This document shows positions 8,503-62,597 of a DNA stretch of 64,000 nt, one piece after another (positions within the stretch are counted from its first letter, which is position 1; every line of letters begins with the position of its first letter). The notes under the pieces are model-generated. The model saw only the letters and a list, made by a program, of their open reading frames with translations, was not told the origin of the DNA and did not search any database. The DNA comes from Psychrilyobacter atlanticus DSM 19335. Its GTDB lineage: Bacteria; Fusobacteriota; Fusobacteriia; Fusobacteriales; Fusobacteriaceae. The stretch covers positions 1,477,159 to 1,541,158 of the forward strand of contig NZ_KE384547.1 in assembly GCF_000426625.1 (NCBI RefSeq). Reading direction: 5' to 3'. The translations under genes were made by a program, and so were the position numbers.

Positions 8503-8513
8503 ATATAACAATG

Positions 8514-8546
8514 AAAGCAGGGTGATTACACCCTGCTTTCAATTTA
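8514..8546 (+). terminator. Intrinsic terminator of the OmpA gene
   Basis: GCAGGGTGattaCACCCTGC hairpin followed by TTTCAATTT. Confidence 0.5.
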
Positions 8547-8620
8547 CTCACTATTTTTATACATTTAATAATTCATATTAAATTTTTAGTCCCCATTCAT
8601 AATTTTTGTTTTTAAACCAT

Positions 8621-8962
8621 CTAATCTATTTTTTCTCCTTCTGTTTCAAGAATATTTCTTCCCCATTTTTCCATAAGGTCTAATATCTCTCCTAGTCCTT
8701 TTCCTTTAGAAGTTATTTTATATTCTACTCTAGGAGGAACTTCCGGGTAAACAGTCCTTTCTATAAACCCATTTTTTTCTAATTCTTTTAGATGTTCGGA
8801 TAATACTTTTTTACTTATGCCAGGAACTATTTTTTGTATTTCACTAAATCTTAAAATTTCTTTATTAAGGTGCCATACAATAAGCGACCTCCACTTACCG
8901 CCTAATACATCTATTGTAGTTTCTATAGGACATTTATACTCCTTATTGTTCCACCTATACAT
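8621..8962 (-). CDS. HxlR-family winged-helix transcriptional regulator
   Basis: CPIETTIDVLGGKWRSLIVWHL is the classic HxlR N-terminal motif. 113 aa. Divergent to a VOC gene, the typical HxlR/VOC pair. Confidence 0.7.
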   Translation of the reverse strand: MYRWNNKEYKCPIETTIDVLGGKWRSLIVWHLNKEILRFSEIQKIVPGISKKVLSEHLKELEKNGFIERTVYPEVPPRVEYKITSKGKGLGEILDLMEKWGRNILETEGEKID

Positions 8963-41356: not shown

Positions 41357-42673
41357 TTATTCTTTATAATTTTCTTTTACTTCATCCCAAGTATATTCTT
41401 GACCATCTCTGATGAGTGTTATATCTTCTTTGGCTATTGCATACCTCTTTACTTCTACATCTACATACTTTGGATCAAACTCCATTAAATATGCTGTTCT
41501 ATCTATCTGATCACAACTCATAAGAGTGCTTCCACTTCCTCCAAACCAATCCACTACGAGATCTCCCGGCTTAGTATTATTTAAAATTAGCCTGGCTAAT
41601 AGCTTTAATGGTTTCATTGTAGGATGAACATCATTTCGTGTTGGTTTATCTTCTCTAATGATTGTTGAGTGCTGTTCTAGTAGTTTTGTCATTTTCACTA
41701 TATATTCTCTAAGTTCACTCTTGCCCATACTGTTAAGAGTTCCAGGTAGTTCTAGTACTGTGTCTTGTGTGTAGTCTTTAATAAAATAGTGTGCTGCTCC
41801 CTCTTTCCATCCATAGAGTATTGGTTCATGTCTCCAGTTGTAGTCCTGCCTCGATAGATTGAATCCATTCTTAACCCATATGAGGCACTGAGATATCTTT
41901 AGCTTAGCTTCTTTTAATGCTCCTCTAAATGCTTCTGTCTCTATATCTGCATGGAATATATAATATGCTCCTCCTGGTTCCAGATACTTATGCATATTCT
42001 TATAAAACCTTAATAGGAAATCATAGAAATCTTTTGAATTCATATTGTCATTGATGATCTTCTTTCCATCCTCTGACTCATAATTTATGTTATATGGTGG
42101 ATCAGTTATACATAGCTTCCCTTTGCTCCCATCCATCAGTCTCTTAGCATCTTCTTTGGAAGTAGAATCACCACATAAAACTTTATGTCTTCCTAACAGC
42201 CATAGGTCACCTTGCTTAGTGAAAGGTTCTTTGTGTTCTTCTACTTCTGGTGCATCTATCTCTTCTATGTTTTCAGAGCTTTCCAGTTCCTCTTCAATCA
42301 GTTTTTGAACTTCTTCAGTATCAAAACCGGTAAGATATGATTTATCTCCTAATGATTTTAATTCTTCATATAGTTTTTCAAACTCCCACTCACCTAATTC
42401 AGCTGCTCTTGATTCTCCTATTCTGATTATTTGTATATCTTCTTCAGATAGATTTTCTATTCGATAGCAATTAATCTCTTGAATCCCTAATTCTACCAAT
42501 GCTACATACCTAGCCGGCTCTCCTACAACTACATTGTTCTTATCAATGACTAATGGAATATACTGATTGTAAGTTTTAATTAAATTCTTATATAGCTTTA
42601 CCTGGGCATCGGTATATATTCTTGAGGTATAACCTATGCTTATCTCTGATATATTTACAATAATTTGATTCAT
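41357..42673 (-). CDS. ParB-like nuclease domain fused to a DNA methyltransferase (N6-adenine/N4-cytosine type)
   Basis: N-terminal ParB/Srx-like region. Motif IV DPPY (CITDPPYNI). C-terminal motif I FGGSGST. Confidence 0.7.
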   Translation of the reverse strand: MNQIIVNISEISIGYTSRIYTDAQVKLYKNLIKTYNQYIPLVIDKNNVVVGEPARYVALVELGIQEINCYRIENLSEEDIQIIRIGESRAAELGEWEFEKLYEELKSLGDKSYLTGFDTEEVQKLIEEELESSENIEEIDAPEVEEHKEPFTKQGDLWLLGRHKVLCGDSTSKEDAKRLMDGSKGKLCITDPPYNINYESEDGKKIINDNMNSKDFYDFLLRFYKNMHKYLEPGGAYYIFHADIETEAFRGALKEAKLKISQCLIWVKNGFNLSRQDYNWRHEPILYGWKEGAAHYFIKDYTQDTVLELPGTLNSMGKSELREYIVKMTKLLEQHSTIIREDKPTRNDVHPTMKPLKLLARLILNNTKPGDLVVDWFGGSGSTLMSCDQIDRTAYLMEFDPKYVDVEVKRYAIAKEDITLIRDGQEYTWDEVKENYKE

Positions 42674-44945: not shown

Positions 44946-45212
44946 TTATTTATTTAAAGCATAAAATTCAATAGCTTTATTTTTCATATCTTCAATATTT
45001 TTAAACTTAGTATAAGTTGTAATCATATTTTGTAGGTGCTTTTCCTGGGTCATTCCCTTTCCAAGTTTGATATTAACTTTCTCCTCAAACTCCTCCATTG
45101 ACCTAAGAGTTGAATATTCTTTAAAAAATTTTTCTGAAAGTAGTTCCTCTGTTGAAATTTCACCATTGTCCAAAGCCTTCATAACTGTCTTTATAGCTAA
45201 TTTATCTACCAT
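44946..45212 (-). CDS. Hypothetical small protein
   Basis: 88-aa ORF. Confidence 0.3.
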   Translation of the reverse strand: MVDKLAIKTVMKALDNGEISTEELLSEKFFKEYSTLRSMEEFEEKVNIKLGKGMTQEKHLQNMITTYTKFKNIEDMKNKAIEFYALNK

Positions 45213-45239: not shown

Positions 45240-46145
45240 TTATCCTCCTACATTCTCAAAAGAAATCTTTATTAATTCCTTTGCTGTTTCTAAATCCTTT
45301 TCCTCAGTTATATAAAACTGAAAATTTCCAGTTCCAAAATGTCCTATATTAGTTACATCTCTTCCAACGTCTTTCCACTTTTCTAACTCACTACTAGTAA
45401 ACTTTAAGTTTATTATTATTCTTTTCTTTTGGCATTCAAGACTTGTAAAGTTTTTAGCTATCTTATATGCCACATAATTCTTTTGAGGGACTTCTTCTAC
45501 TTCTTCACTTAAGTTAACTGTATAGTCCCTTATGTCATCTATAAATTCTTTCAAATCAGTAGTTCCTAATTTATTGGATATTCGTTCATATGTCCAAACA
45601 GGTTTTTCTGTTTCTTTTTCATCTACACGAACTACTTTTTCTTTGCATTTGTTATTTTCCATGTTAACAAATATCTCCTCAAGATTAAACATCCCGTTTT
45701 CAAAGTTTTTATATTTCCAGAGTTCTATTGATTTATTCATGACTTTTACAGCATGAAGATCATATTTTTTATATCCTGGAGCGATACAAATAACCCTTAT
45801 ATTACTCCAGTCAATATCTATATATCCAAGCTGTTTATTAACAGCCATTTGAAAATCTCCCTTGTGGTCTTCTAACCAAGACAGATAATATAGTGATTGG
45901 TTAAGAAGACTTGAAGATTCTTCTTTTTTATATTCAATGATTACAGGGTTATTATCTTCAGATATAGCTATAGTATCTATCCTTCCAGAGTGAATACTAC
46001 CAGTATAAAACTCTGAAGCTACAAATTTACAATTAAATATTTCTTCTAAATTATTTTCAACTAATTGTTGGAGCTCTCTTTCTAGTGGAAAATTCTTTTG
46101 TTTTACTACATTAAGAACCCCATTTTCTTGATTAAATAATGGCAT
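45240..46145 (-). CDS. Putative PD-(D/E)xK nuclease-fold protein (NucS/DUF91-like N-terminus)
   Basis: The GRIDTIAI...VIIEYKK motif matches the D...(D/E)xK pattern of restriction-endonuclease-like folds. Sits downstream of hsdS. Confidence 0.35.
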   Translation of the reverse strand: MPLFNQENGVLNVVKQKNFPLERELQQLVENNLEEIFNCKFVASEFYTGSIHSGRIDTIAISEDNNPVIIEYKKEESSSLLNQSLYYLSWLEDHKGDFQMAVNKQLGYIDIDWSNIRVICIAPGYKKYDLHAVKVMNKSIELWKYKNFENGMFNLEEIFVNMENNKCKEKVVRVDEKETEKPVWTYERISNKLGTTDLKEFIDDIRDYTVNLSEEVEEVPQKNYVAYKIAKNFTSLECQKKRIIINLKFTSSELEKWKDVGRDVTNIGHFGTGNFQFYITEEKDLETAKELIKISFENVGG

Positions 46146-46158
46146 AGTTATGTCTCCT

Positions 46159-46983
46159 TTATTTTTTTAAATTAAATAAACTCTCTTCGTTTGAAGAAAA
46201 TACCTGTTTCGAGCAATTTTTCCCTACATCGTTAGCATAAGAAATCATTTTAGAATCTGCAGGAAGAATACAATTATTTTTTAAGTCTGGATAATTAGGA
46301 TATAAAGCTAAACAATAATCTTTACTTAAAGGGAAAAAATGTATCTGCGTGTATGAGTCTAGTGAAACACCACTAGAATAAGCACAAAATTTTATTTTAG
46401 AATTTTCTTTTGCCTCAAGAATAACCCATTTTTTTTGTAAAAAGAATCGACTTATTTCATTAAATGGAAAATTTTTTAATGTTTCTAAGTGTGATAATTG
46501 TTTATCTATACTAAATTTTATTTTATTTTCAGGAATATCATTATTAAACATACCTTTTTCTTTTAATATTTGATAAGCCCCTTTAAATGCCCATGAATTA
46601 ATTTCAGCTGCCATTTCCCTAAATTTATCTGTTCTACTTATTTGAAAAGCGAGATAAAATGCCAGATGACCTTTTGTTTTTGAATCAAAAATATTTTGTA
46701 TATTAAGTAATCCATTTGGATAAACTCTGTTATAAAAAGGTACTTCAATATATTTGCTTATATAGTCTTCTAGTTCGTTATTGGGAGCATCCTTATCAAC
46801 CTCATAAAAATAATGTTCTGAACAAATTTTTTCTATTCTTTTTTTTAATATTTTTAAATTATCAACATCTAGTACATAAACTTTAGCTTTTTTTCGATCT
46901 TTATTTTTTGAGTTTATTTGAAATTTTCTTAAATATCCTTGTGGAATGTAATGTTGATTTTTTACTAAGTTTAATTTAGACAT
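46159..46983 (-). CDS. DUF4238-family protein (defence-island associated)
   Basis: N-terminal HYIPQGYLRKF matches the hallmark HY(I/V)PxFYLxxF start of DUF4238 proteins. Confidence 0.5.
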   Translation of the reverse strand: MSKLNLVKNQHYIPQGYLRKFQINSKNKDRKKAKVYVLDVDNLKILKKRIEKICSEHYFYEVDKDAPNNELEDYISKYIEVPFYNRVYPNGLLNIQNIFDSKTKGHLAFYLAFQISRTDKFREMAAEINSWAFKGAYQILKEKGMFNNDIPENKIKFSIDKQLSHLETLKNFPFNEISRFFLQKKWVILEAKENSKIKFCAYSSGVSLDSYTQIHFFPLSKDYCLALYPNYPDLKNNCILPADSKMISYANDVGKNCSKQVFSSNEESLFNLKK

Positions 46984-47016
46984 CCTTAACCTCCTCTAAT
47001 CACTTCAGTATTATTT

Positions 47017-48234
47017 TTACACAAACATCTGTTGTAATAATCCCTTTTTAAAATCTTTCATTTCATTTATTTTGGTATTAACTACCCCTATTTTTTTATC
47101 AATCATCGATAGAAAATTAGCTATTCTATTTTGCTCTTCAAGACATGGATAAAATAATTTAAGATCTCCAAAAACAGAATAACTAATCTGTTTCCCATCA
47201 CGAATTCCTACAACTGCACTATTCAATCTAGAAATGAAATCTTCTTTTTTTAGATAATTTTTATAAAAAACATCTGAAATAGATAACTTCGGTTTTAATA
47301 CTGTATAAGCGGGACTACTGATACCTAAAATATTAGAATATTCTATTCCTCCTTGAAAGGATCTTAAACTGATTACAAAATCTCCCGGTTCAATAATTTT
47401 ATAATTTTTTATCCCTGCTTCTGAAGAATTAATTTTAAGATTTAAGTTATCCCTCAAAACTACACCTTTATCTTGTGTTACTGCTAATATGGGTAAATCT
47501 CCATTGTGTTCTTTATTAGATTGATTCTTAAATATTTCCTTAGCTTTCAAAAATTCCCAAGCAGGATACTCATTCCCATTCTCATTTTTAAACTTAATCT
47601 CTTGAGAAAATATTTTTTGCATTATTCCTTTCTTATATTCCTCTAATAATTCTTTCTTTTCTTCCAATTTTCCTATCTTGTTGTCTACAGATGATAGAAA
47701 TGAAGCTATTTTTTTTTGCTCAAATATAGTAGGATACACTATCTTTAATTTAGCTATTTCTTTAGTATTTATAACTCCCTGAGTTGATCCTGCTGTAACT
47801 GCTAATGTTTGTTTTTTTACTCTGTCAGAATTAATCAAATTAATCAGAAGAATATTATTCATAAATTCTTTGGCCCTAAGAATGACTATATTAAGAGTAT
47901 TTGCACTATCTATGTCTGTATATAATGATGCTTGACCATTCGAACCATGTCTAGCAATTAATATATCTCCATTTAAAATCTGTGATTTTTTATTTTTTTC
48001 ATGAAATTCATTTGTTACATATTTTATATTTTTGGTTACAACTTTTCCATTAACTAGATTACCTGTTCTAATAAGTTTTACACCTTTACTTGACGTAGTA
48101 TAAAACTTTTCACAAGTCCCTACAAAACCAACATTCAATTTTGAACAAACTTCAGATAAATTTTTACTCTCCCAATCCCCATTAAACTCTTTAAATCTTA
48201 ATTTAGGTTGTAATTTATTTTCCATAGCTACCAC
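47017..48234 (-). CDS. hsdS: Type I restriction-modification specificity subunit
   Basis: 405 aa. Two target-recognition-domain halves separated by conserved coiled-coil repeats. Immediately downstream of and abutting hsdM. Confidence 0.75.
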   Translation of the reverse strand: MVAMENKLQPKLRFKEFNGDWESKNLSEVCSKLNVGFVGTCEKFYTTSSKGVKLIRTGNLVNGKVVTKNIKYVTNEFHEKNKKSQILNGDILIARHGSNGQASLYTDIDSANTLNIVILRAKEFMNNILLINLINSDRVKKQTLAVTAGSTQGVINTKEIAKLKIVYPTIFEQKKIASFLSSVDNKIGKLEEKKELLEEYKKGIMQKIFSQEIKFKNENGNEYPAWEFLKAKEIFKNQSNKEHNGDLPILAVTQDKGVVLRDNLNLKINSSEAGIKNYKIIEPGDFVISLRSFQGGIEYSNILGISSPAYTVLKPKLSISDVFYKNYLKKEDFISRLNSAVVGIRDGKQISYSVFGDLKLFYPCLEEQNRIANFLSMIDKKIGVVNTKINEMKDFKKGLLQQMFV

Positions 48235-49776
48235 CTAAACCATTGGAGCTTCTATTCCAAGCTCCTCACAATACCTTTTTATTTCTTCATCAATATCTTT
48301 CATACTTTCATCTAATGCTTTTATTTTTTTAGCTGTTTCTTTTAAATCTATTTCCTCTTCCTCTTCAAATGTATCAACATATCTTGGGATATTGAGATTA
48401 TAGTCATTTTCTTTTATCTCTTCCATAGTAGCTAGGTGGGAAAACTTCTCTATCCCTTCTCTTTTTTTGTAAGTTTCAATTATTTTTTCTACGTCACTGT
48501 CTTTCAACATATTTTGATTCTTATTCTTTTCAAATAATTTACTTGCATCTATGAATAATACGTTATCCGATACTTCCCTGCACTTTTTAAAAACTAAAAC
48601 ACAAGTTGGGATAGATGTCCCATAAAATATATTAGCCGGTAGTCCGATTACTGCATCTAGATAGTTTTTTTCTTCCAACAGGTATTTCCTGATAGTTCCT
48701 TCAGCTGCTCCTCTAAATAATACTCCATGAGGTAATACAGTTGCCATAGTCCCGTTATCATCTAATTGATGGATCATATGTTGTACAAAAGCAAAATCAG
48801 CCTTAGTTTTCGGTGCTAACTTACCATAACTAGCAAATCTTTCATCAGATAAAAATATCTGATTAGCAGACCATTTTGCAGAAAATGGAGGATTAGCCAC
48901 TACAGCTTCAAACCTTTCCTCTCTGTGATGAGGTTCTTCTAGTGTATCTCCCTGTAAGATATCAAAATCACTAAATTTAACATCATGTAATATCATGTTC
49001 ATCCGAGCCAAGTTATATGTGGTAGTATTTAATTCCTGCCCATAAAAATGACTTACTTTGCTTTCTTTAGCTACTCTTAGAAGAAGTGATCCTGATCCAC
49101 AAGTAGGGTCATATACAGATTTTAATTTTGTTTTATTTGCTGTTACTAATTTTGCAAGTATCTTTGATACCTGTTGAGGAGTATAAAACTCTCCTGCCTT
49201 TTTACCTGCTCCACTTGCAAATTCTCCTATAAGGTATTCATAGGCATCTCCTAATACATCTATCTCTGTGTCTTCATGTTTAAATTTTATTTCATCCAAA
49301 TGTTTTATTACTTCAGATATTAATGTATTTTTCTGTTCTACAGTTCTTCCTAATTTACTGGATGTAAGGTCTACATCTTCAAATAAACCTGTAAAATCCT
49401 GTTCACTGTCATGACCTAATGCTGATTCTTCTACAAGTTTTAAAGCTTTAGTTAGATCTTCTATAACCATCTCTTTATTTCTAGCTCTTTCAGATAGATT
49501 ATGGAATAAGTATTTTGGTTCAATAAAATATCCTAATTCATCTATAATAGCTTCTTTTAATTCTTCCATTAACTCACTGTCTTTAACAGCATCTATAAAT
49601 GTAATTCCATCTTCTTTTAATTCTTCATTTGCAAAATCTTCTATTTTTTCAGATAAAAATTTAAAGAATATAAATCCTAAAATATAATCTCTAAATTCAT
49701 CTGCTCCCATATTTCCTCTTAGTTCATTGGCTATTGCCCATAGTCTTTTCTCTAATTCCTGCTTATGTTCTGACAT
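48235..49776 (-). CDS. hsdM: Type I restriction-modification DNA methyltransferase subunit
   Basis: HsdM N-terminal domain. SAM-binding motif. Catalytic NPPF (VANPPFS). Confidence 0.85.
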   Translation of the reverse strand: MSEHKQELEKRLWAIANELRGNMGADEFRDYILGFIFFKFLSEKIEDFANEELKEDGITFIDAVKDSELMEELKEAIIDELGYFIEPKYLFHNLSERARNKEMVIEDLTKALKLVEESALGHDSEQDFTGLFEDVDLTSSKLGRTVEQKNTLISEVIKHLDEIKFKHEDTEIDVLGDAYEYLIGEFASGAGKKAGEFYTPQQVSKILAKLVTANKTKLKSVYDPTCGSGSLLLRVAKESKVSHFYGQELNTTTYNLARMNMILHDVKFSDFDILQGDTLEEPHHREERFEAVVANPPFSAKWSANQIFLSDERFASYGKLAPKTKADFAFVQHMIHQLDDNGTMATVLPHGVLFRGAAEGTIRKYLLEEKNYLDAVIGLPANIFYGTSIPTCVLVFKKCREVSDNVLFIDASKLFEKNKNQNMLKDSDVEKIIETYKKREGIEKFSHLATMEEIKENDYNLNIPRYVDTFEEEEEIDLKETAKKIKALDESMKDIDEEIKRYCEELGIEAPMV

Positions 49777-49791
49777 TTATTTATCTCCTAT

Positions 49792-50697
49792 TTATTTGAA
49801 TTTATTCTCATATTTTTTTTTGAAATTTTTAATTTTTATATCTTTCTCTTTAGCCCATTCTTTTAAGTATGTAGTATCTTTTTTTAATAATTTTTCTTCG
49901 ATTGCTTTGATCAGTTCATTTACTGCAGTAAAAACACCTTCTAGAGCAAGTTCTATATCTTTTGGATATCTTAAAGATCTTAGTTCTAATATCCCAGACT
50001 CATTCATTCTATTGTGTATAATTGAAGTTTGTCCATGAACACTCATAGAATAAATTTTAAATGGCCCATTAAAAAGTCCTCTATAAGAATTACTATTATC
50101 ATTATAAAGGTCATACCATTTTACTCTCCCTTTCTTTTTTTTATTCACCTTGACTAATTCATCTTTTATTTTTTCTTTAAAACTTTTTAAGTCCTCAACC
50201 ATTACAGTATAATTTATTCGGGCCTCTTTTAGTTTCTTTTGTTGTTTTTCCTTGGCTGATTTATCTTCTATACTTTCTTTAAAAGTTTCCAAGTCTTTAT
50301 ATTCTTTATTGAATTCTTTATCAAGTTCATCGAGTGCCTTTTTTTTATATTTAAGAAAGTCTTCTTGTTTAAAATATAAATATGACATAGCTCTCTTTTC
50401 AGAATTTTTTTTTAAAATAAACAAAATTTCGCAAGTCAATTCGATAAGACATCGCATTAAAATATTTATATTATCTGCCGAAGCATAACTTCCTAATATT
50501 TTTATCCCATCTATTTTTTCTAAAGCTTCTCTACTCAGCATTAATGTAAGGTTTTCCGTAACCCCAATAATTTTAATTTTATTTATTTCTTTAAATACTT
50601 TATAAAAATCTCTGAATAATTCATCTATTATAGATACAAATTCCTTACTCATCTCATTTATAAGTTCAGTTTTTTCTTGAAAGCAATCCAATTCCAT
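49792..50697 (-). CDS. Hypothetical protein inserted between hsdR and hsdM
   Basis: 301 aa. No NTPase or nuclease motifs. Lys/Glu-rich coiled-coil C-terminal half. Occupies the slot that PrrC/Abi-type genes occupy in other type I loci. Confidence 0.35.
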   Translation of the reverse strand: MELDCFQEKTELINEMSKEFVSIIDELFRDFYKVFKEINKIKIIGVTENLTLMLSREALEKIDGIKILGSYASADNINILMRCLIELTCEILFILKKNSEKRAMSYLYFKQEDFLKYKKKALDELDKEFNKEYKDLETFKESIEDKSAKEKQQKKLKEARINYTVMVEDLKSFKEKIKDELVKVNKKKKGRVKWYDLYNDNSNSYRGLFNGPFKIYSMSVHGQTSIIHNRMNESGILELRSLRYPKDIELALEGVFTAVNELIKAIEEKLLKKDTTYLKEWAKEKDIKIKNFKKKYENKFK

Positions 50698-50721
50698 AAA
50701 TCCTCCTCTGGCAGTAAGTCC

Positions 50722-53523
50722 CTACCAAGTATACTTATGTACAATCTCTGCAACCTGGTCTTTGATTAATTCTATTTTTGCTTTTCCATCTCTAAATCCT
50801 AATTTTTGTGTGAAAGCTCCCTTTATCTGTTTTCTGTCAAACTTGTTGGAATATTCATATTCACTCATTATATTTTCCATTCCCTCTCTATCCAACTGTT
50901 CATCTTCTACAAGGTTATTTATCGCACTTTCTTTTTCTACTTGTATAAATTTATCGAATTCATCTTCGATATTTTCCGGATTATCCAAATGAGGTACATT
51001 TTCTTCTATAAATTTCTCTATAAGTTTCTTCTTACTTCTAAGTTCAGGTGCATTTTCTATAGCTTTTAGTATAAACTCTTTATCCTTGGCAAAACCTTCA
51101 GCTTTAGGATCAAGTTCCTTTAATAAAGCCATGATATAAGCCACATTTATATCATCTCTTCTGATAAGATCTATTTCAAAATCCAATTCATCTATTATAG
51201 ACGTTTTCTCAATTCCATTTTCATTTGTATTTTTATATTTTTCAAAAATATCTAGATATTTACTTTTATAATCTTCAAATGTCTGATGATCTATATCTAA
51301 TACATCAAAAGAAAACTCACTAAAACTAGTTAATCTAGTCATAACTCTGAGCAGGTTTCTATATGCTTGGACAAAATGTGCTATATCATCTTCACTCTGC
51401 AGGTCATCTACTGAATCTACACTTGGAGTTATTGCTGTTAGTTTTTCTAAATAACCATTAAATTCATCTACATATGCAGAATATTCTTTCATTAATACAG
51501 TCTCTAAAGCTTCTTTATTAGAAAATAATTTTATAGCTTCATCTGTTCTATTTTTTAGATTTCTAAAACAAACTATATTTCCATGCTTTTTCTTTTCATT
51601 TAATAACCTATTAGTTCTTGAAAATGCCTGAACAAGTCCATGATATTTTAAATTTTTATCTACATAAAGTGTATTTAATCCTTTACTGTCAAAACCTGTT
51701 AGGAACATATTTACTACTAATAGAATATCTATCTTTTGTTTTTTTACTTTCTTGGAAATATCAATATAATACCCATTAAACCCGCCATCTTTGTTTAGGT
51801 CATGGTTAGTTCCAAATGTAGTATTATACTCAGTAACTATTTCATCTAGCTTATCTCTTGTATGCTTATTAGTTTTTTCTTTCTCTTCTTCAGTATAACC
51901 ATCTGCTTCCAGATCTTCTTCATTAGCTGAATATGTAAATATTGTAGCTATTTTTAGATTATGGTCCTGGCTTTTAAGCAAATCATAATATTTAATCAAT
52001 GTATCGATAGAACTAATTGCAAAAATAGATGTAAACTCTTTACCATATGTTTTCCTGGTATGATTAGCAATTATAAATTTTGAAATATTTTCTAATCTTT
52101 GGGGAGCATTAAAGACCTCTTTGGTATCTATACCCTGAACTTTGAGATCATCTACCGGGAGATCTTCTCCATCAGGCCCGATGAGACACTTGGACTTAAA
52201 TGTATTATAATATTCCACTGAAAATCCCAATACATTGTCATCACTTATGGCATCTTTAATCACATATTTATGTAAACAGTCATTAAAAAGATCTGCAGTA
52301 GTTTTATGTTTTATTGCATTATCTGCAAATATAGGTGTACCGGTAAATCCGAAAAATTGTTTTTGATTAAAAAATTCAGTTATCTTATTATGTGTATCTC
52401 CAAACTGGGATCTGTGACACTCATCAAATATAAATACCATCCTTTTATCTTTTGCTATACTCATTTTTTTCTCTAAATTTCCCTTACTAATAGCATTATT
52501 TAATTTTTGGATAGTGGTAATTATTAGTTTAGTTTTATTATCTGTTATCTGTTTTACCAGGTGATTGGTGTTATCTGTACCATCTATACTTCCCTTTGAA
52601 AAAGCATTAAATTCTTTTATAGTCTGATAATCCAGATCTTTTCTGTCTACTACAAATAATACTTTTTCTATATTTTTATTCTGAGTAAGAATTTGACTTG
52701 CCTTAAATGAAGTAAGGGTTTTCCCTGACCCGGTAGTATGCCAGATATAACCATTTTTACCTGGTGAAGTTTCAACTCTGTTCAAGATTTTTTCTACTGC
52801 ATAATACTGATATGGTCTCAGTGCCATCAATATTTGGTCCGATTCATGAAGCACTATATATTTAGCTATAATCTTAGCTAAATGACATTTTTCCAAGAAT
52901 ATATCTGTAAATTTATTTAACTCACTATATCTGTTATTTTCAATGTCAGTCCAATAAAAAGTCTGCTTAAACGACTGATACCTGTTATTGGCATAATATT
53001 TTGTATTTACACCGTTACTTATTACAAACAGCTGGATATAGTGAAATAATCCCTGATAAGAATGTTTATGATATCTGTTTACCTGGTTAAATGCTTCTTT
53101 AAGTTCTATCCCTCTTCTCTTTAGTTCGATCTGTACCATGGGAATTCCATTTATAAGAATAGTCACATCATATCTATTTTTATATTTTCCTACCATGGTA
53201 ATTTGATTAGAAACCTGAAATATATTTTTACACCACTCTTTTTGATTAAAGAATTCTAAATAAAAAATATCTCCATTATCTCGGTTTAATTCAAATTTAT
53301 CTCTTATTTTCTTGGCTTTTTCAAATACACTCCCTCCAGACAAATGGATAAGAACTCTTTCAAATTCTCTGTCAGAAAGATATATCTTATTATGAATCTC
53401 AAGCTGTTTTCTAAAGTTTATTTGAAGTTTGGCTTCATCATCTATACAAACTTTTTCATACCCTTGTGATACTAGCTGATCTATAAGTTTATTTTCAAGT
53501 GCTGCTTCTGATTGTGTGCACAT
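50722..53523 (-). CDS. hsdR: Type I restriction endonuclease R subunit
   Basis: HsdR N-terminal nuclease region. SF2 helicase motif I TGSGKT and motif II DECH (FDECHRS). 933 aa. Confidence 0.8.
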   Translation of the reverse strand: MCTQSEAALENKLIDQLVSQGYEKVCIDDEAKLQINFRKQLEIHNKIYLSDREFERVLIHLSGGSVFEKAKKIRDKFELNRDNGDIFYLEFFNQKEWCKNIFQVSNQITMVGKYKNRYDVTILINGIPMVQIELKRRGIELKEAFNQVNRYHKHSYQGLFHYIQLFVISNGVNTKYYANNRYQSFKQTFYWTDIENNRYSELNKFTDIFLEKCHLAKIIAKYIVLHESDQILMALRPYQYYAVEKILNRVETSPGKNGYIWHTTGSGKTLTSFKASQILTQNKNIEKVLFVVDRKDLDYQTIKEFNAFSKGSIDGTDNTNHLVKQITDNKTKLIITTIQKLNNAISKGNLEKKMSIAKDKRMVFIFDECHRSQFGDTHNKITEFFNQKQFFGFTGTPIFADNAIKHKTTADLFNDCLHKYVIKDAISDDNVLGFSVEYYNTFKSKCLIGPDGEDLPVDDLKVQGIDTKEVFNAPQRLENISKFIIANHTRKTYGKEFTSIFAISSIDTLIKYYDLLKSQDHNLKIATIFTYSANEEDLEADGYTEEEKEKTNKHTRDKLDEIVTEYNTTFGTNHDLNKDGGFNGYYIDISKKVKKQKIDILLVVNMFLTGFDSKGLNTLYVDKNLKYHGLVQAFSRTNRLLNEKKKHGNIVCFRNLKNRTDEAIKLFSNKEALETVLMKEYSAYVDEFNGYLEKLTAITPSVDSVDDLQSEDDIAHFVQAYRNLLRVMTRLTSFSEFSFDVLDIDHQTFEDYKSKYLDIFEKYKNTNENGIEKTSIIDELDFEIDLIRRDDINVAYIMALLKELDPKAEGFAKDKEFILKAIENAPELRSKKKLIEKFIEENVPHLDNPENIEDEFDKFIQVEKESAINNLVEDEQLDREGMENIMSEYEYSNKFDRKQIKGAFTQKLGFRDGKAKIELIKDQVAEIVHKYTW

Positions 53524-53591
53524 AATTTATCTCCTAAAACCTTTATTTTTTTAATTCTTCACCATTTAAAATTATCATTGGAATTTCCTAA

Positions 53592-54053
53592 TTAAAGATT
53601 GTTTTTTTCCTCTATTAACTCTAGCAACACATCTAATTTATTGACATCTAATAGCGTTTTTGATTGATTAAATGTTACCTTTCTAGAAAAAACATCCCCT
53701 AACTCTTCACTAGAAATTGGACTAAATGTTTTAATAGTTCCCTTTGAAAAGAAATATCTTCCTTTCTCTTCCCATACGTCCTTAACAACTTTATCTAAAA
53801 TTCCACATGCTACAATTGAAGCTCTAAATTGAAATAATATGAGTGCTTTTTCTCCATCTGGGAGGGCGATTCCTTGCCCTTCATAGTTATAAAACATCTT
53901 TCCAGTTATTTTTTCTCTTTCTTTTAACCTTCCTTTAAAAAATTCTTCTTGTAAATCTTCTATCCCCCACTCTTTAAATTCTTCTTTAGAGCTCATAGGT
54001 AGAATTTGTATCCTTGTCCTAGTCATTAAAGATTCTAGATCTTTTATTTCCAT
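53592..54053 (-). CDS. Hypothetical protein
   Basis: 153-aa ORF between the CI-like gene and hsdR. Confidence 0.3.
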   Translation of the reverse strand: MEIKDLESLMTRTRIQILPMSSKEEFKEWGIEDLQEEFFKGRLKEREKITGKMFYNYEGQGIALPDGEKALILFQFRASIVACGILDKVVKDVWEEKGRYFFSKGTIKTFSPISSEELGDVFSRKVTFNQSKTLLDVNKLDVLLELIEEKNNL

Positions 54054-54082: not shown

Positions 54083-54790
54083 TTAATTCCATTCATCCTC
54101 ATAATATGTTTTTATTACCTTTCCTTCACACTTTAATTCCTCACTATTTAAAATTATTAATGCAGGAACATCAGGGTTAAATGATACTAATTGGATAATA
54201 TTCTGACTATCTATTAATAATTGTTTTATAAAAGTCTCCTCATTATACGTAAACACACAAACTTTTTTATTCAGTTCTTTAGGGTCTTCACACATTCCAG
54301 GGTCTACCAACGCTACTGATCCATCAAAAATAGATTTTTTCCCCATCCTAGTCATGGAATCTCCTTCTACCCTCACTGCAAATCTTCCTGGAGCATAGTC
54401 TTCTGCCGGAATAACAAATTCTTCATCAATCATATCTGATAAATTTATATATCCTGGACCTGCACTTGCAGTTCCATACATTGGAACTGTAGTTTTTTGA
54501 GTTTCGATTCTAGAATTTATTCTTTTTACATTTGATGGTATGTTTAAATAGCCTATCTCGTTAAATACTTTAATTACATCAAGATCGTATATTTTGCATA
54601 AGCTTTTTAGCAATATTGCATTGGGAACTTTTCTCTCTGCATTTTCCAACCTTTGAACATCACTCTTACTAATTTTTAGATTTAAAAAATCTAATTTTAT
54701 TTTTACCTGTTCTAATGTTAATTTTTTATTTGAACGACCATTTTTCAATAATTCTCCTAATTTAATCATTTGGTCATTATTTAATTTCAT
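54083..54790 (-). CDS. LexA/CI-like repressor (XRE HTH plus S24 peptidase)
   Basis: N-terminal HTH. C-terminal S24 autopeptidase motif (VRVEGDSMTRMG...) with a downstream Lys region. Confidence 0.75.
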   Translation of the reverse strand: MKLNNDQMIKLGELLKNGRSNKKLTLEQVKIKLDFLNLKISKSDVQRLENAERKVPNAILLKSLCKIYDLDVIKVFNEIGYLNIPSNVKRINSRIETQKTTVPMYGTASAGPGYINLSDMIDEEFVIPAEDYAPGRFAVRVEGDSMTRMGKKSIFDGSVALVDPGMCEDPKELNKKVCVFTYNEETFIKQLLIDSQNIIQLVSFNPDVPALIILNSEELKCEGKVIKTYYEDEWN

Positions 54791-54985: not shown

Positions 54986-54997
54986 TTATCTATTATA

Positions 54998-55186
54998 TTA
55001 ACAACAATTTTGATTACTATAACTATTTCCATTAAGAAAATAAGAATTTGTATCTTTATTTTGTAAAAGTATCTTCTTATAGCTAAGATCCTTTTTTTCT
55101 TTAGATATATAGAATTCATTTAAATATCCTAATAAAGATAATCCCATTAGACCTATAATTATTAAATCTTTTGTTTTTAATTTCAT
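54998..55186 (-). CDS. Small membrane protein A (62 aa)
   Basis: The true start is the ATG at 55186, preceded by RBS AAGGAGA. The ORF-track start at 55264 runs through the leader. One TM helix (LIIIGLMGLSLLGYL). Confidence 0.4.
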   Translation of the reverse strand: MKLKTKDLIIIGLMGLSLLGYLNEFYISKEKKDLSYKKILLQNKDTNSYFLNGNSYSNQNCC

Positions 55187-55190
55187 TTTT

Positions 55191-55276
55191 TCTCCTTTAA
55201 ATTCTGAATAGTGTGGTTCAAGATGTAAAGAAATAGCCCCCAAGCTGCTCTTGAACTGCACCATTGAGATTTTAAT
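55191..55276 (-). ncRNA. Conserved 5' leader with stem-loop, copy A
   Basis: About 80% identical to 55561..55626. Contains GTTCAAGA...TCTTGAAC plus a GGTGCA/CCACAC outer stem, with covariation relative to copy B. Confidence 0.4.
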
Positions 55277-55279
55277 TTA

Positions 55280-55552
55280 TTATTTATAATATATTTTTCT
55301 ACACATAAAACCTAAAAATATAATCCAAAAGAGTGTATATCCAAAGGTTACAAAAAAATGAATTGGAATATTTTCAAAATATATAACTGCATCGAAAAAT
55401 GCTCTGAAGCTAAAAAGTGTAACTAATCGATCATAAGAAGGATTCCCTTTTTTACCTTTTTCTTCCCTTAAAAGGGCATATAATCCTACTGGAGCAAAAA
55501 AAATAAAAGAAAGAATAAAAAATGTCTTTTTGAACTTACTTATTGCTCTCAT
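55280..55552 (-). CDS. Small membrane protein B (90 aa)
   Basis: The true start is the ATG at 55552 after RBS AAGGAGA. Two or three TM helices. Confidence 0.4.
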   Translation of the reverse strand: MRAISKFKKTFFILSFIFFAPVGLYALLREEKGKKGNPSYDRLVTLFSFRAFFDAVIYFENIPIHFFVTFGYTLFWIIFLGFMCRKIYYK

Positions 55553-55560
55553 AGAAATCA

Positions 55561-55626
55561 TCTCCTTAAACTCTGAATAGTATGGTTCAATACGCACTTA
55601 TTGAACTGTACCATTGAGACTTTAAT
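55561..55626 (-). ncRNA. Conserved 5' leader with stem-loop, copy B
   Basis: GTTCAATAagtgcgTATTGAAC with GGTACA/CCATAC outer pairs. Begins immediately after the XRE gene stop. Confidence 0.4.
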
Positions 55627-56847: not shown

Positions 56848-57819
56848 ATGGAAAAAGAAAACATGAAGTACACCATTGGGGCTGTCCAGCAGCACCAACT
56901 CATAAAACATGACCTGGATATTAAAGATGCTTTTATTATCACTTATTTAAAAGAGATTACTACTTCTAAGAAATTAATAAACAAAAAAATTGCAGGTAAG
57001 AAATATGTTTGGATAGATTATCAAAGTCTCATTGATTATCTTCCGGCATTAAAAATTAATTCTAAAGATGTGATTGCTAGGAGGATGGCCAATTATGAAA
57101 AAATCGGATTAATTAAAAAACATATCCATAAAACTATGGCTTATGGGTCATATACGTTTTTCCATCTTGAAGAAAAGTTTAATACTATGTTTGAAATTCA
57201 AAAAGTAGAAAAGGATGATAGTGAGTTAGAAAAAATAAAAGAAAAGATGGGGCTTCTAGACCAACAAAATGAGGAACCTACTTTTGAGTCGGGTGGTTTC
57301 GACTCAAAAGTAGAGACTACACCGACTCAAAAGTCGAGACATAATACTCCCAATAGCATTCTCCCATCAAAAGATAGTAGTAGCACAGAAACAAATCCTG
57401 CTGCCTCTGATGATGATTTTTTTAAAGAATTAAAAACTATTCTTTCAGATGCCAGTATTAAAAATCATAATTCTAATACTTTGAAAAATATTAAAAATTA
57501 TTCCAATGGAGATATCGGTGAGGTTAAAAAAGTAATTGAGTTTATAAAACTTAAAAATAAAAATATGAACTCTAAAATATTAGTGGCAATTTTAAAAGAT
57601 AAAGATCATCAGATAGTTGAGCCTGTAGATATAAAAAAGGTCCCTAGAAAAGAGAAAATAGCCTTCATGATTGAAGAATTAGGAGAATTTAAAATCAGAT
57701 CTATGAGAAATGCTATTTTAAAAGAGATTGGCTGTGAATGCCAAGGTGTAGATGATGATCTGGGGAATCAGCTGTGTAAAAAATACAATAAGCTAAAAAC
57801 TCAAGGAGGAGTGGAATGA
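56848..57819 (+). CDS. Putative phage replication initiation/organiser protein containing candidate iterons
   Basis: 323 aa. Position in the early rightward operon upstream of the integrase. N-terminal region resembles replisome-organiser proteins (weak). Internal 18-bp direct repeats. Confidence 0.35.
   Translation: MEKENMKYTIGAVQQHQLIKHDLDIKDAFIITYLKEITTSKKLINKKIAGKKYVWIDYQSLIDYLPALKINSKDVIARRMANYEKIGLIKKHIHKTMAYGSYTFFHLEEKFNTMFEIQKVEKDDSELEKIKEKMGLLDQQNEEPTFESGGFDSKVETTPTQKSRHNTPNSILPSKDSSSTETNPAASDDDFFKELKTILSDASIKNHNSNTLKNIKNYSNGDIGEVKKVIEFIKLKNKNMNSKILVAILKDKDHQIVEPVDIKKVPRKEKIAFMIEELGEFKIRSMRNAILKEIGCECQGVDDDLGNQLCKKYNKLKTQGGVE
57286..57340. repeat. Candidate origin iterons inside the replication gene
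   Basis: Direct repeats CGACTCAAAAGTAGAGAC (57300..57317) and CGACTCAAAAGTCGAGAC (57323..57340). Preceded by the inverted repeat GAGTCG-8nt-CGACTC. Confidence 0.35.
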
Positions 57820-58486: not shown

Positions 58487-59830
58487 ATGATGAAGAATAA
58501 AAAAGGAATAATTTATGTCAGAGAATCCACCAAAGACCAGGACTGGGAAGCTCAGCTTATAGAGTGTAGAAATTATGCTGCTAAACTGGGAATCGAAGTT
58601 GTAAAGGAATATGTAGATCAGATGTCCGGAGCCAGGAACGACCGGAAAGGATTCCTTGAGCTTCAGGATGATATAAAAAATGCTGAATTTGATATCTTAA
58701 TCCTATGGGAACTTTCTCGTGCCACCAGGGATTTCATAACCTATCGACTTCTATTCCAGAGTCTAAAAGAAGCCGATATAGAACTTCACTCCCTTCAGGA
58801 AGGTATCCTGGCTACTGATGATGATATAGATAAAAACTTTGGTATAGACATTATGGCTCTCCTAAACGAGAGGGAAAGAAAGATCGTCGGCCGTAGGATA
58901 AAAATAAGAAAAGACTCCCTCAGATATTCCGGTAGATGGGGAGGAGGGAGAACTCCCCTTGGATACTCCAGTAATGGCCCTGAATTATTTATAAATGATG
59001 ATGCTCCCTTAGTTCGTGAGATCTTTAATCTCTATTCAAAAGGTGAATCTATAGCAGCTATAGCTAGAAAATTTGGAATGAATGATCGAAAAAGAGTAGG
59101 CAGAATATTAAAAAATCCATTATATACCGGTAAAATAGTTATAGCCACTGAATCTGTCAATGGAAAAACTAAAGTATACAACCCCCCTAAACTAATAGAC
59201 GGGCTCCATGAACCCATCATCTCTGAAGAATTATTCTATTCCATCAATAAAATCAGGAAAAGTAATAAACCTAAGAGTTATAAAGATCATTATCTATTCA
59301 ATAATGTAATCTGCCAATGTGGAAAAAAAGCCTATCCCTGCAGAAATAAACATGGTCACCTCACATATGATTGTTTGAACCACGTACACTGGCATAGTGG
59401 CGCTATGTTGGAGGAACAGGTTATTGATATCTTAGAAAAAGAGATGGAAAAAATGACCCTAGAAGATGATGATCCAAACAATCCAAAAGTAAGAATTACC
59501 CTCTATGAAAATGAACTAAAAAAAATTATAACCAAGGAAAAAAACTTGTTAACTAAATACCTGGATGGAAAAGTTACTGAATCCCTTTTTGATTCTACTA
59601 GTTTAGAATTATCCAAAACAAAGAAAGGGATCCAGGAAGAAATAAAATCATTGAAAGAATACAAACCTAATACTATTAATATAGATAACAAAACTCTGTT
59701 AAAAAAGTACCTGAAAAAAATTAAAAATGAAAAGGACCGAAAAAAGATAAAGAAAATATTGAATTTAATAATTTATGAAATTAAATACGTTAATAATTTT
59801 AGAGCTGTAGTTATCACTAACCTTATTTAG
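58487..59830 (+). CDS. Large serine recombinase (phage integrase)
   Basis: N-terminal resolvase catalytic domain with IIYVRESTKDQ (serine nucleophile motif). Recombinase domain. C-terminal Cys-rich zinc ribbon (CQCGKK...CRNKHGH...C) and coiled coil. 447 aa. Confidence 0.8.
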   Translation: MMKNKKGIIYVRESTKDQDWEAQLIECRNYAAKLGIEVVKEYVDQMSGARNDRKGFLELQDDIKNAEFDILILWELSRATRDFITYRLLFQSLKEADIELHSLQEGILATDDDIDKNFGIDIMALLNERERKIVGRRIKIRKDSLRYSGRWGGGRTPLGYSSNGPELFINDDAPLVREIFNLYSKGESIAAIARKFGMNDRKRVGRILKNPLYTGKIVIATESVNGKTKVYNPPKLIDGLHEPIISEELFYSINKIRKSNKPKSYKDHYLFNNVICQCGKKAYPCRNKHGHLTYDCLNHVHWHSGAMLEEQVIDILEKEMEKMTLEDDDPNNPKVRITLYENELKKIITKEKNLLTKYLDGKVTESLFDSTSLELSKTKKGIQEEIKSLKEYKPNTINIDNKTLLKKYLKKIKNEKDRKKIKKILNLIIYEIKYVNNFRAVVITNLI

Positions 59831-61529: not shown

Positions 61530-62597
61530 ATGGATGATCTTACCCACTGGGTTGAAGAGTTTCAAGATAATATGCAGGAATATGAAATATTTATATTTCA
61601 CCTACAGCAAAAAATTGAAAGGATTCTAAAAGACAATAATATATTCTATGTAAAGACAGAGGCTCGTGTAAAAAGTCTGGATAGTTTTAAAAGAAAATTA
61701 GAAATGAAAAAAAATAAATATCAAAACCCTTTGGAAGAGATGACTGATATCTTAGGCATCCGTATAATCACATATTATAGGGAAGACCTCGATGAGATTT
61801 TAAAACTTCTCAAAGAAAACTTTAAGATCGATTATAAAAATTCAACAAATAAACTTCAAAGTTTAAAATATAACGAGATGGGCTATCTGTCTCTCCACTA
61901 TATCTGCAAATGTAAACCCAGCCAAAAAAATCTTTATGGGTGCACTGATTTTAAATTTGAAGTACAGATACGAACTGCTCTACAGCATATTTGGGCTCAA
62001 ATTGATCATCAGTTAAGATATAAAACCCTTGCCAATATACCAAATAAAGTTCAAAGAAAATTATTTAGAATAAGTGCCATGTTAGAAAGTGTCGATGATG
62101 AATTTGATTCTATTAAACACGACGTTCAAGTAGTCGAGAATTTTTATAAGGACAGATTTAATGAGAAAGAATACAGCCTTCGTTTGGATCTTTCCAGCAT
62201 CAATTTCTATCTAAAATATAATGATAGGTTCATTCGTTCTATCTGCAAAAAATTAGGGGTCTTTCATTTCAATAATTTTGAAGTCGCAAAAGAGGAACAT
62301 TTGGAGAAAAAATTGATTAAATTTGCACTTCAATTCAATAAGAATAGAGTAATTTATATTGAAGAATTAGTTAACAGTATCTACAAAAATACAGACATTA
62401 TTCTAGATAAATTAGATAAAGATACCTTAAAAAAAATAAATTATGTGGTTAATTCCAGCTGTTCTTTTGTCTTAACATTTTTACTCCTACTAAATGAAGA
62501 TATTTTAGAGATACAAAAAATCTATAAATTAACAGATTCCAGTTTAGAAAAGATTAAAGATCTCAGAAAGATTATTTTATTGGGAGAACCTAACTAA
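61530..62597 (+). CDS. RelA/SpoT-domain protein (small alarmone synthetase-like nucleotidyltransferase with a C-terminal extension)
   Basis: Synthetase-domain motifs RVKSLDSFKRK, DILGIRIITYY and EVQIRTALQHIWAQIDH. About 150-aa C-terminal region of unknown function. Confidence 0.6.
   Translation: MDDLTHWVEEFQDNMQEYEIFIFHLQQKIERILKDNNIFYVKTEARVKSLDSFKRKLEMKKNKYQNPLEEMTDILGIRIITYYREDLDEILKLLKENFKIDYKNSTNKLQSLKYNEMGYLSLHYICKCKPSQKNLYGCTDFKFEVQIRTALQHIWAQIDHQLRYKTLANIPNKVQRKLFRISAMLESVDDEFDSIKHDVQVVENFYKDRFNEKEYSLRLDLSSINFYLKYNDRFIRSICKKLGVFHFNNFEVAKEEHLEKKLIKFALQFNKNRVIYIEELVNSIYKNTDIILDKLDKDTLKKINYVVNSSCSFVLTFLLLLNEDILEIQKIYKLTDSSLEKIKDLRKIILLGEPN

Follow-up and report, generated by a model that had tools for sequence, protein, structure and literature searches.

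The interval between the repressor gene and the ParB-methyltransferase region of a Psychrilyobacter atlanticus prophage is likely to be a variable cargo bay, or hotspot, of a temperate phage, holding independent defence layers and not one machine. The bay would open straight after a CI/LexA-like repressor gene and close at a conserved block made up of PDC-S18, p88, small genes, p377, a ParB-methyltransferase and terminase. Its first layer would be a complete type IC-like restriction-modification (R-M) system, its second a DUF5677 gene and its third a stand-alone DUF4238 gene. The locus is a fresh example of two known arrangements, the prophage defence hotspot and genes embedded in type I R-M.

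Conserved flanks and exchanged cargo in a prophage hotspot

The window, by which we mean the whole 64,000-nt stretch of DNA analysed, contains a complete prophage. Proteins 100% identical to those encoded here bear source names that point to Psychrilyobacter atlanticus. Terminase, portal, protease, capsid, tape measure, baseplate and endolysin genes lie at 18-40 kb and a large serine recombinase gene at 58487..59830, and host genes lie past 60.4 kb and below ~16 kb. The prophage corresponds to a temperate phage of roughly 43 kb that a serine recombinase integrated, and the island is prophage-borne, as the earlier note had held. We searched for a tRNA as a marker of the attachment site and found none, and when the 40-60 kb segment was compared with 50,697 phage records for near-identical DNA, nothing matched. 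The genes of the hotspot and its flanks are as follows.

54083..54790, minus strand: CI/LexA-like prophage repressor, HTH and S24 peptidase (Pfam Peptidase_S24, 1.2e-15; phrog_4, 3.9e-31)
53592..54053, minus strand: 153-aa protein, first gene past the repressor, no family match
50722..53523, minus strand: hsdR, 933 aa, family IC-like restriction subunit (PADLOC REase_I, 1.2e-303; TIGR00348, 2e-147)
49792..50697, minus strand: DUF5677 gene, 301 aa, between hsdR and hsdM (Pfam PF18928, 36.3 bits against a cut-off of 27.1)
48235..49776, minus strand: hsdM, N6-adenine methyltransferase subunit (N6_Mtase, 1.7e-114; HsdM_N; TIGR00497, 2.2e-140)
47017..48234, minus strand: hsdS, specificity subunit (two Methylase_S stretches; PADLOC Specificity_I, 3.9e-114, full length)
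46159..46983, minus strand: DUF4238 gene (Pfam PF14022, 8.8e-20, 71.7 bits against a cut-off of 27, model positions 1-280 of 281)
45240..46145, minus strand: PDC-S18 protein, 301 aa (PADLOC PDC-S18, 1.7e-101, residues 2-299; Pfam DUF5655 at the C-terminus)
44946..45212, minus strand: p88, an 88-aa conserved phage gene (88-90% identical in L003 and L008)
42673..41357, minus strand: ParB-methyltransferase (phrog_498, 1.6e-128)

The block does sit between the CI-like repressor and the ParB-methyltransferase, as the earlier note described. Five small or unknown genes, among them one for a 377-aa phrog_36664 protein (p377), lie between PDC-S18 and the ParB-methyltransferase and went unmentioned in that note.

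Six related phages carry the same flanks with a different cargo in each, and flank proteins are 85-92% identical in the closest relatives. The order is CI-like repressor, cargo, then PDC-S18, p88, small genes, p377, ParB-methyltransferase and terminase; the repressor, which forms the conserved upstream flank, has 85-86% aa identity to those of L003 and L008. Seven different cargo sets were seen, with an R-M system in every one. Those of the six relatives are listed below.

L003: AbiH, type III R-M, TIR (PDC-S35) and Bro-N (PDC-S13)
L005: type III R-M and a 297-aa ORF
L008: type I-like MTase, S and TIR
L032: hsdM-hsdS-RT (UG30/DRT)-330 aa-hsdR
L033: hsdM-hsdS-PD-Lambda-3_A-like-161 aa-DUF4238-hsdR, and FRG (PDC-S15)
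L038: hsdM-hsdS-hsdR

The cargo is enriched in known defence genes (type I and III R-M, AbiH, TIR/PDC-S35, PDC-S13, DRT-type RT, PD-Lambda-3_A-like, PDC-S15 and DUF4238), in line with the prophage defence hotspot that had been suspected. The earlier note had allowed that these ORFs might turn out by HMM to be ordinary phage replication or recombination genes; our HMM searches did not identify them as such.

The limits of the variable segment are sharp at the DNA level. On the repressor side, homology with relatives breaks at 54096 or 53572; on the PDC-S18 side the break is at 46146 or 46160. With L003 it stops at 54096, by the repressor gene; homology to L003 and L008 picks up again at 46146 and 46160, just past the DUF4238 stop, and the variable cargo of the window has hsdR as its first gene and DUF4238 as its last. 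A search for direct and inverted repeats around the cargo found a 31-nt copy of the 3' end of the repressor gene and otherwise only short AT-rich matches.

The 153-aa ORF (54053..53592) lies inside the interval covered by the earlier note, which did not mention it. Its product had no match in Pfam, PADLOC, NCBIfam or PHROGs and is present in only some relatives; L008 carries a truncated ORF of 101 aa that matches it at 88% identity, and a second copy of the gene at the distal cargo end.

From the repressor gene to p88 the intergenic gaps are 29, 68, 24, 15, 0, 33, 13 and 27 nt. Terminator-like minus-strand hairpins outside coding sequence were found only at 54982-54963 and 44931-44904, the latter just past the p88 gene and the only convincing site of its kind downstream of the island; hsdM itself contains one weak terminator-like site (48622-48607). 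Given the short spacing and lack of terminators, the run of nine genes that starts with the repressor and ends with p88 would probably form one long transcription unit in the lysogen, or be reached by read-through from the repressor promoter. A promoter scan of this AT-rich DNA gave 73 sites against 70.5 expected from shuffled sequence, so co-transcription is something we infer from layout. Lambda rexAB, downstream of cI and co-transcribed with it, is a precedent for repressor-linked defence, and BstA adjoins the BTP1 repressor. As in these two cases, defence genes in the window are co-oriented with a lysogeny repressor and directly downstream of it; unlike them, the window has a downstream block of about 8 kb with several systems, and its co-transcription is deduced from spacing and terminators.

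A type I R-M operon and its embedded DUF5677 gene

All ORFs and motifs named in the earlier note, those of the three hsd genes among them (hsdR by TGSGKT and DECH, hsdM by NPPF), were located where it had placed them; the genes of the block are co-oriented on the minus strand with gaps of 0-68 nt. HsdR has HSDR_N, SWI2_SNF2/ResIII, T1R_D3-like and EcoR124_C domains in Pfam; its TGSGKT is at 52717-52734, its DECH at 52414-52425 and its nuclease motif D...ELK within aa 119-135. HsdM carries DPTCGSG and NPPF (48883-48894) and a TIGR00497 score above cut-off, and the two Methylase_S stretches of HsdS correspond to two target-recognition domains. The N-terminal PD-(D/E)xK nuclease, SF2 motor and EcoR124-type C-terminus of HsdR, together with the AdoMet and NPPF motifs of HsdM as a gamma-class methyltransferase and the HsdS domains, place the system in type I (family IC-like). 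Profile searches of the island genes against PADLOC models, a check proposed by the earlier note, matched REase_I, Specificity_I and PDC-S18. By sequence, the type I system looks intact, with an extra gene embedded at the hsdR/hsdM junction. HsdM2S would be expected to methylate lysogen DNA at a bipartite site, and HsdR2M2S to translocate along unmethylated incoming DNA and cut it.

The 301-aa ORF noted as wedged between hsdR and hsdM belongs to the DUF5677 family. Its product is all-alpha and without a P-loop. It had no structural relative among solved or viral structures, no model in the PADLOC known, HEC or PDC sets, and no recognisable enzymatic domain. A word-based homologue search gave only two DUF5677 proteins, and a full HMMER scan of 1.84 billion proteins was needed to recover 91 representatives at E <= 1e-3. 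Four residues (R82, E86, W194 and H221) do not vary among 46 family members, an observation that hints at a defined site of catalysis or binding. Two enzymatic candidates were tried and rejected: a PrrC/RloC-type anticodon nuclease, given an all-helical protein with no P-loop and no Pfam or PADLOC match beyond DUF5677, and a HEPN RNase, for which the test for an Rx4-6H motif on a HEPN four-helix fold failed.

Genes inside type I R-M operons have been used as defence candidates under the principle of guilt-by-embedding (bioRxiv 10.1101/2024.01.29.577857), and such genes are often defence systems, as with TgvAB in V. cholerae VPI-2 (PMC11411939) and DarTG2 in EPEC (PMC12255303). Embedding is also common in the R-M clade of the window, for which we surveyed 47 metagenome loci with an HsdM 62-80% identical to that of the window and hsdR visible. 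Embedded ORFs were present in 19 of them (40%) and included PDC-S18 (6 loci), PDC-S13, PDC-S02, PDC-S23 and an AriA/OLD-like ATPase. The window has the order R-X-M-S, whereas 46 of the 47 relatives have M-S-(X)-R; the sole other R-first locus, L093, carries Septu PtuA/PtuB between hsdR and hsdM. The hsdR-DUF5677-hsdM order recurs in one metagenome contig, L001 (hsdR 86% aa identity, DUF5677 84%, hsdM 94%), and on these comparisons the cassette is inherited as a unit. The window and L001 form the only independent lineage in which we found DUF5677 embedded in R-M.

DUF5677 would most likely be a separate anti-phage gene, inherited with the cassette and sharing the expression of the operon. A more far-reaching proposal, which we put forward as possible but speculative, is that it represents a novel kind of anti-phage protein, or a guard of R-M, whose all-alpha fold has not been seen before and for which the type I operon would be both expression source and trigger; PDC-S18 would in parallel be a general R-M-coupled auxiliary nuclease and not a free-standing system.

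We think it fairly unlikely that DUF5677 plays no part against phages and is a passenger, such as a hitchhiker of variable genomic islands that landed in the operon. Consistent with a passenger, the gene has a GC content of 25% against 29-31% for hsdR and hsdM, a subfamily scan of 2.9 million viral contigs and a tblastn search of the plasmid collection returned no match, and the only published test of a family member was negative: a DUF5677 ORF, tested alone in E. faecalis, fell outside the five of nine candidates that were positive (bioRxiv 10.1101/2025.10.07.681051). Genomic neighbourhoods are heterogeneous as well. At 22 genomic loci, found with a profile of a 5-sequence subgroup that is mostly from Bacteroidota and does not contain the nearest relatives of the window gene, an R-M-like neighbour was present at a single one, and the majority of neighbours had no relation to defence. 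However, some of those neighbours are defence proteins (PDC-S18, PDC-S06, PDC-S46, Drt8, dGTPase and MzaA), and the family is statistically enriched in serine-recombinase-associated defence contigs (bioRxiv 10.1101/2025.10.07.681051). Also against a passenger, the other genes in the seven cargo sets are almost entirely defence genes or candidates, and it is Septu that occupies the equivalent junction in L093.

It is distinctly improbable that DUF5677 is a functional accessory of the type I system and not an independent gene. One form of accessory would be a PrrC-style guard that the Hsd complex keeps inactive until a phage anti-restriction protein attacks that complex; another would be a factor that regulates or assembles HsdR. 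Its place 24 nt past hsdR and 15 nt before hsdM, its co-divergence with both and its four invariant residues would fit such a role.

The DUF4238 and PDC-S18 genes

The earlier note had also placed a DUF4238 protein and a protein with a D...ExK motif directly after hsdS. Both are there, with gaps of 33 nt and 13 nt, and the HYIPQGYLRKF motif of the former is at 46921-46953. DUF4238 is a validated single-gene defence against T7 in E. coli, from the P2 hotspot (PMC9122126). A word-based search found four DUF4238 proteins. The closest homologue with long context (L033, 43% identity) is found inside a different type I system, flanked by hsdS and hsdR, and the neighbours differ among the window, L033 and L035, leaving no fixed partner gene. 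The window subfamily is attached to or inside type I R-M in both of the two informative contexts. We propose that the window gene is a stand-alone defence gene.

PADLOC lists PDC-S18 as a candidate single-gene system, one of the PDC set that comes from guilt-by-embedding (bioRxiv 10.1101/2024.01.29.577857); our literature search found no match to it by name and no published defence phenotype. The protein combines an N-terminal NucS-like PD-(D/E)xK nuclease with a C-terminal DUF5655 (YdhG/YjbR-like) domain. NucS is the nearest match for the nuclease fold, the residues of the D-ExK triad are invariant, and the motif RIDT...EYK is encoded at 45972-45983 and 45927-45935. We regard it, on sequence and context, as a lineage-conserved, R-M-associated defence candidate. 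Besides the HMM match, embedding in type I R-M, BREX or DISARM is a mark of PDC-S18; the window copy is one gene downstream of hsdS, outside the R-M operon.

PDC-S18 might instead serve the phage lineage as a housekeeping gene, for instance one for a nuclease of recombination or DNA processing, which we think unlikely. It does behave in part like one, as a semi-conserved downstream flank at a fixed position with 86-91% conservation in most relatives, like the neighbouring core genes, and as an unusually slow-evolving protein with about 50% identity across Bacteria and Archaea and 59 invariant columns. But the related phage L033 lacks it, phages very rarely carry it (4 of 50,697 phage records had it, as did 10 of 2.9 million viral contigs), and it also occurs in a toxin-antitoxin/integrase island of Desulfitobacterium.

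A two-gene module of DUF4238 with the PD-(D/E)xK protein, suggested in the earlier note, found no support, and an obligate pair is very improbable: the two are adjacent and co-oriented, but PDC-S18 occurs without DUF4238 at the same position in L003, L005, L007, L008, L032 and L038 and also in L031 and six embedded R-M loci, DUF4238 occurs without PDC-S18 in the L033 phage, the homology breakpoint with relatives falls exactly between them, and DUF4238 works alone in E. coli (PMC9122126).

Relation to known systems and meaning

The P2 old/tin locus and the P4 hotspot likewise have conserved phage flanks around interchangeable, almost entirely anti-phage cargo, with DUF4238 among the cargo there and in P. 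atlanticus (PMC9122126). The P. atlanticus hotspot differs from them in that it belongs to an unrelated serine-integrase phage of a Fusobacteriota host, lies directly downstream of the repressor and has R-M in every cargo set. In the window, as with PrrC in EcoprrI, the Campylobacter rlo genes, TgvAB and DarTG2, a foreign gene sits among hsd genes in the same orientation and with tight spacing; what sets the window apart is that this gene is a DUF5677 gene, outside the PADLOC sets and with no recognisable enzymatic domain. Like Rst_DUF4238, the window DUF4238 gene is prophage-borne, has variable neighbours and matches the Pfam domain over its full length; that likeness is one of Pfam domain, as the window protein had no PADLOC match and no tblastn match in the phage collection. 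PDC-S18 lacks the architecture of the NucS N-terminal DNA-binding domain and has DUF5655 instead, and in the window it is beside R-M and not inside it.

The papers that we retrieved contain no description of phage defence in Fusobacteriota. The analysis corrects a tempting pairing of DUF4238 with the PD-(D/E)xK gene and draws attention to DUF5677, a gene inside type I R-M whose product is a structural orphan. PDC-S18 turns up repeatedly with a single type I R-M clade and evolves unusually slowly, which makes it a sensible next experimental target. Together, the flanks, breakpoints and seven cargo sets are comparative evidence that a phage family from Psychrilyobacter and Propionigenium, both Fusobacteriota, has a defence hotspot, and they may be mined for further candidates.

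The gene block and its type I system

The minus strand between 54790 and 44946 carries nine co-oriented genes that lie 0-68 nt apart, to which families were assigned by searches of Pfam, PADLOC, NCBIfam and PHROGs.

Genes of the block. PDC-S names denote PADLOC candidate defence families.
54790..54083, minus: CI/LexA-like repressor, S24 peptidase and HTH; phrog_4
54053..53592, minus: p153 (153 aa), no family match in Pfam, PADLOC, NCBIfam or PHROGs
53523..50722, minus: hsdR; nuclease D...ELK, SF2 motifs, EcoR124-type C-terminal domain
50697..49792, minus: DUF5677 gene, Pfam PF18928
49776..48235, minus: hsdM; DPTCGSG and NPPF
48234..47017, minus: hsdS; two recognition domains
46983..46159, minus: DUF4238 gene, Pfam PF14022
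46145..45240, minus: PDC-S18 gene (301 aa), PADLOC 1.7e-101; Pfam DUF5655 at the C-terminus
45212..44946, minus: p88 (88 aa), kept in relatives

When motif positions were checked, all the motifs quoted in the earlier note were found where expected, and because the motifs and domains of HsdR, HsdM and HsdS are all present, the restriction-modification (R-M) system looks complete and undamaged. GC content is 24.6% in the DUF4238 gene (46159-46983) and 25.3% in the DUF5677 gene (49792-50697) versus 29-31% in hsdR and hsdM, consistent with separate origins.

The non-coding DNA of the minus strand has just two terminator-like hairpins, one at 54982-54963, which lies upstream of the repressor gene, and one at 44931-44904, which follows p88; one more weak terminator-like site lies within hsdM (48622-48607). 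Since no other non-coding hairpin intervenes, we infer that in the lysogen the block would be transcribed with the repressor gene, or by read-through from it.

A prophage hotspot with exchanged cargo

The window contains a complete prophage, with terminase large subunit, portal, protease, major head protein, tape measure, baseplate and endolysin genes at ~18-40 kb, as well as a tail-fibre repeat protein and a large serine recombinase (58487..59830). Host genes lie to its right (SDR, RelA/SpoT-type synthetase, Ppx/GppA) and left (GGDEF and HD-GYP proteins), and a tRNA search of the window found none. The small RelA/SpoT-domain (alarmone synthetase-like) gene, 61530-62597, sits just beyond the right end and adjoins the Ppx/GppA phosphatase gene.

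The neighbourhoods of close homologues of PDC-S18 and DUF4238 yielded six related phages in which the variable stretch was visible, plus one partial locus. Protein and DNA comparison with the closest relatives, L003 and L008, gave identities of 85-86% for the repressor, 86-91% for PDC-S18, 88-90% for both p88 and p377 (the 377-aa protein beyond PDC-S18) and 90-93% for the ParB-methyltransferase. DNA similarity ends on the repressor side at 54096 (L003) or 53572 (L008) and restarts at 46146 or 46160. Between these shared flanks, no two phages carry like cargo.

Cargo of the window and the six related loci.
Window: p153, hsdR-DUF5677-hsdM-hsdS, DUF4238
L003: AbiH, type III Mod/Res, TIR protein (PDC-S35), Bro-N protein (PDC-S13)
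L005: type III Mod/Res, 297-aa protein of unknown family
L008: type I-like methyltransferase, S subunit, TIR protein
L032: hsdM-hsdS-reverse transcriptase (UG30/DRT-like)-330 aa-hsdR
L033: hsdM-hsdS-PD-Lambda-3_A-like-161 aa-DUF4238-hsdR, then FRG protein (PDC-S15)
L038: hsdM-hsdS-hsdR

An R-M system is present in all seven sets, and nearly all the remaining cargo consists of known or candidate defence genes. The earlier note had called this block a prophage-borne defence island, and the conserved flanks with swapped, defence-rich cargo across related phages bear that out; on these comparisons we regard the interval as a true prophage hotspot.

Several features of the surroundings were also observed. 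L008 holds two p153-like genes (L008:321-1744 and L008:6317-6690, against window 54088-53572): a truncated copy of 101 aa directly after the repressor, and one of 156 aa (77% nucleotide identity) at the distal cargo end, directly before PDC-S18. This gene may mark recombination boundaries of cassettes. The 3' end of the repressor gene reappears between p153 and hsdR as a 31-nt direct repeat (87%; 53550-53580 and 54132-54162); the L008 breakpoint at 53572 falls within this repeat, which may be a scar left by an exchange of cassettes. A 570-nt segment (54996-55565) missing from L003 and L008 holds two small membrane-like ORFs (55597..55280 and 55264..54998) whose leaders are repeat copies, 92% identical, and is followed by the hairpin 54982-54963; we read the segment as a possible separate moron lying between the HTH and repressor genes. 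At L005:17-2517 (Propionigenium maris), RepA_N and ParA genes adjoin the repressor in place of an integrase, so members of this phage family may live as plasmid-prophages; a 323-aa protein of the window (56848..57819) is 39% identical to the L005 RepA_N protein.

DUF4238, PDC-S18 and the embedded DUF5677 gene

The suggestion that DUF4238 and the PD-(D/E)xK protein (PDC-S18) form a two-gene module did not hold up, as each gene is found without the other and the breakpoint of homology with relatives sits exactly between them. PDC-S18 adjoins quite different genes in L003, L005, L007, L008, L032 and L038. L033 embeds a DUF4238 homologue (43% identity) in another type I operon and lacks PDC-S18 altogether. 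DUF4238 is a published single-gene defence against T7 from the P2 hotspot (PMC9122126), and PDC-S18 is entered in PADLOC as a candidate consisting of one gene. Judged by these gene contexts, the pairing hypothesis appears wrong.

PDC-S18 is remarkably well conserved: it has more than 2,000 homologues, the best 120 of which, bacterial and archaeal, are all at least 48% identical, and a 38-sequence alignment has 59 invariant columns, including D57, E71 and K73. Its C-terminal domain resembles YdhG, YjbR and DUF419 proteins, and it is rare in phage collections. The PDC set was compiled from genes that lie inside BREX, DISARM or type I R-M systems, with experiments on Hma-embedded candidates only (bioRxiv 10.1101/2024.01.29.577857). 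The gene (45240-46145; homologues P0004-P0122) retains ~50% identity across bacterial and archaeal phyla, and so evolves far more slowly than DUF5677 or DUF4238 of the same island.

DUF5677 lies 24 nt from hsdR upstream and 15 nt from hsdM downstream. The metagenome contig L001 has the same order, with amino acid identities of 86% (hsdR), 84% (DUF5677) and 94% (hsdM), and therefore the cassette has diverged as a unit. Defence genes inside type I operons are an established pattern, exemplified by PrrC, Campylobacter rlo genes, TgvAB (PMC11411939) and DarTG2 (PMC12255303; see also bioRxiv 10.1101/2024.01.29.577857). We compared 47 loci in which hsdR is visible and HsdM is 62-80% identical to ours. 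The order was M-S-R in 46; 28 had no embedded ORF and 19 did, including PDC-S18, PDC-S13 (Bro-N), PDC-S02 (YhcG), PDC-S23 (RhuM-Fic), an AriA/OLD-like ATPase and a Schlafen/AlbA_2 protein. In L093, the sole other R-first locus, the hsdR/hsdM junction that DUF5677 occupies here holds Septu PtuA/PtuB.

The DUF5677 family is small (91 representatives at E <= 1e-3 among 1.84 billion proteins) and fast-evolving, with a mean column identity of 28% and R82, E86, W194 and H221 invariant. AlphaFold predicts a wholly helical protein with high confidence (pLDDT 91); an HEPN RNase reading was rejected, Rx4-6H on a four-helix HEPN fold not being found. At about aa 125-185 the window protein has a helical insertion, rich in K and E, that is absent from relatives, and the gene there holds a 63-nt direct repeat (78%; 50131-50193 and 50233-50295). 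A subgroup mainly from Bacteroidota, whose members are not the nearest relatives of the window protein, gave 22 genomic loci, of which only one (L022) had an R-M-like neighbour; the other neighbours were a mix of uncharacterised genes, housekeeping genes and a small number of defence proteins. In L022 (2127-8936; Namhaeicola litoreus), an R-M-like methyltransferase, PDC-S18 (6436-7329) and DUF5677 (8001-8936) lie a few kb apart, with PDC-S18 within 2 kb, which adds another genome, unrelated to the first, where PDC-S18 and DUF5677 lie close together. DUF5677 is enriched in serine-recombinase-associated defence contigs, and the DUF5677 ORF assayed there was not among the positives (bioRxiv 10.1101/2025.10.07.681051).

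Proposed working of the island

The R-M system would methylate self DNA and cut unmethylated invaders, protecting the lysogen and its prophage. DUF4238 would add an independent layer, and the probable role of PDC-S18 is that of a nuclease. For DUF5677 the most plausible reading is a further independent layer sharing the operon's expression; a PrrC-like guard role and a passenger role are less likely. The locus is at once a prophage defence hotspot and a type I R-M system that carries an embedded gene, both of them known arrangements. DUF5677 is the one candidate that it offers, the slow-evolving, R-M-linked PDC-S18 nuclease is a noteworthy side observation, and the island interpretation now has comparative backing.
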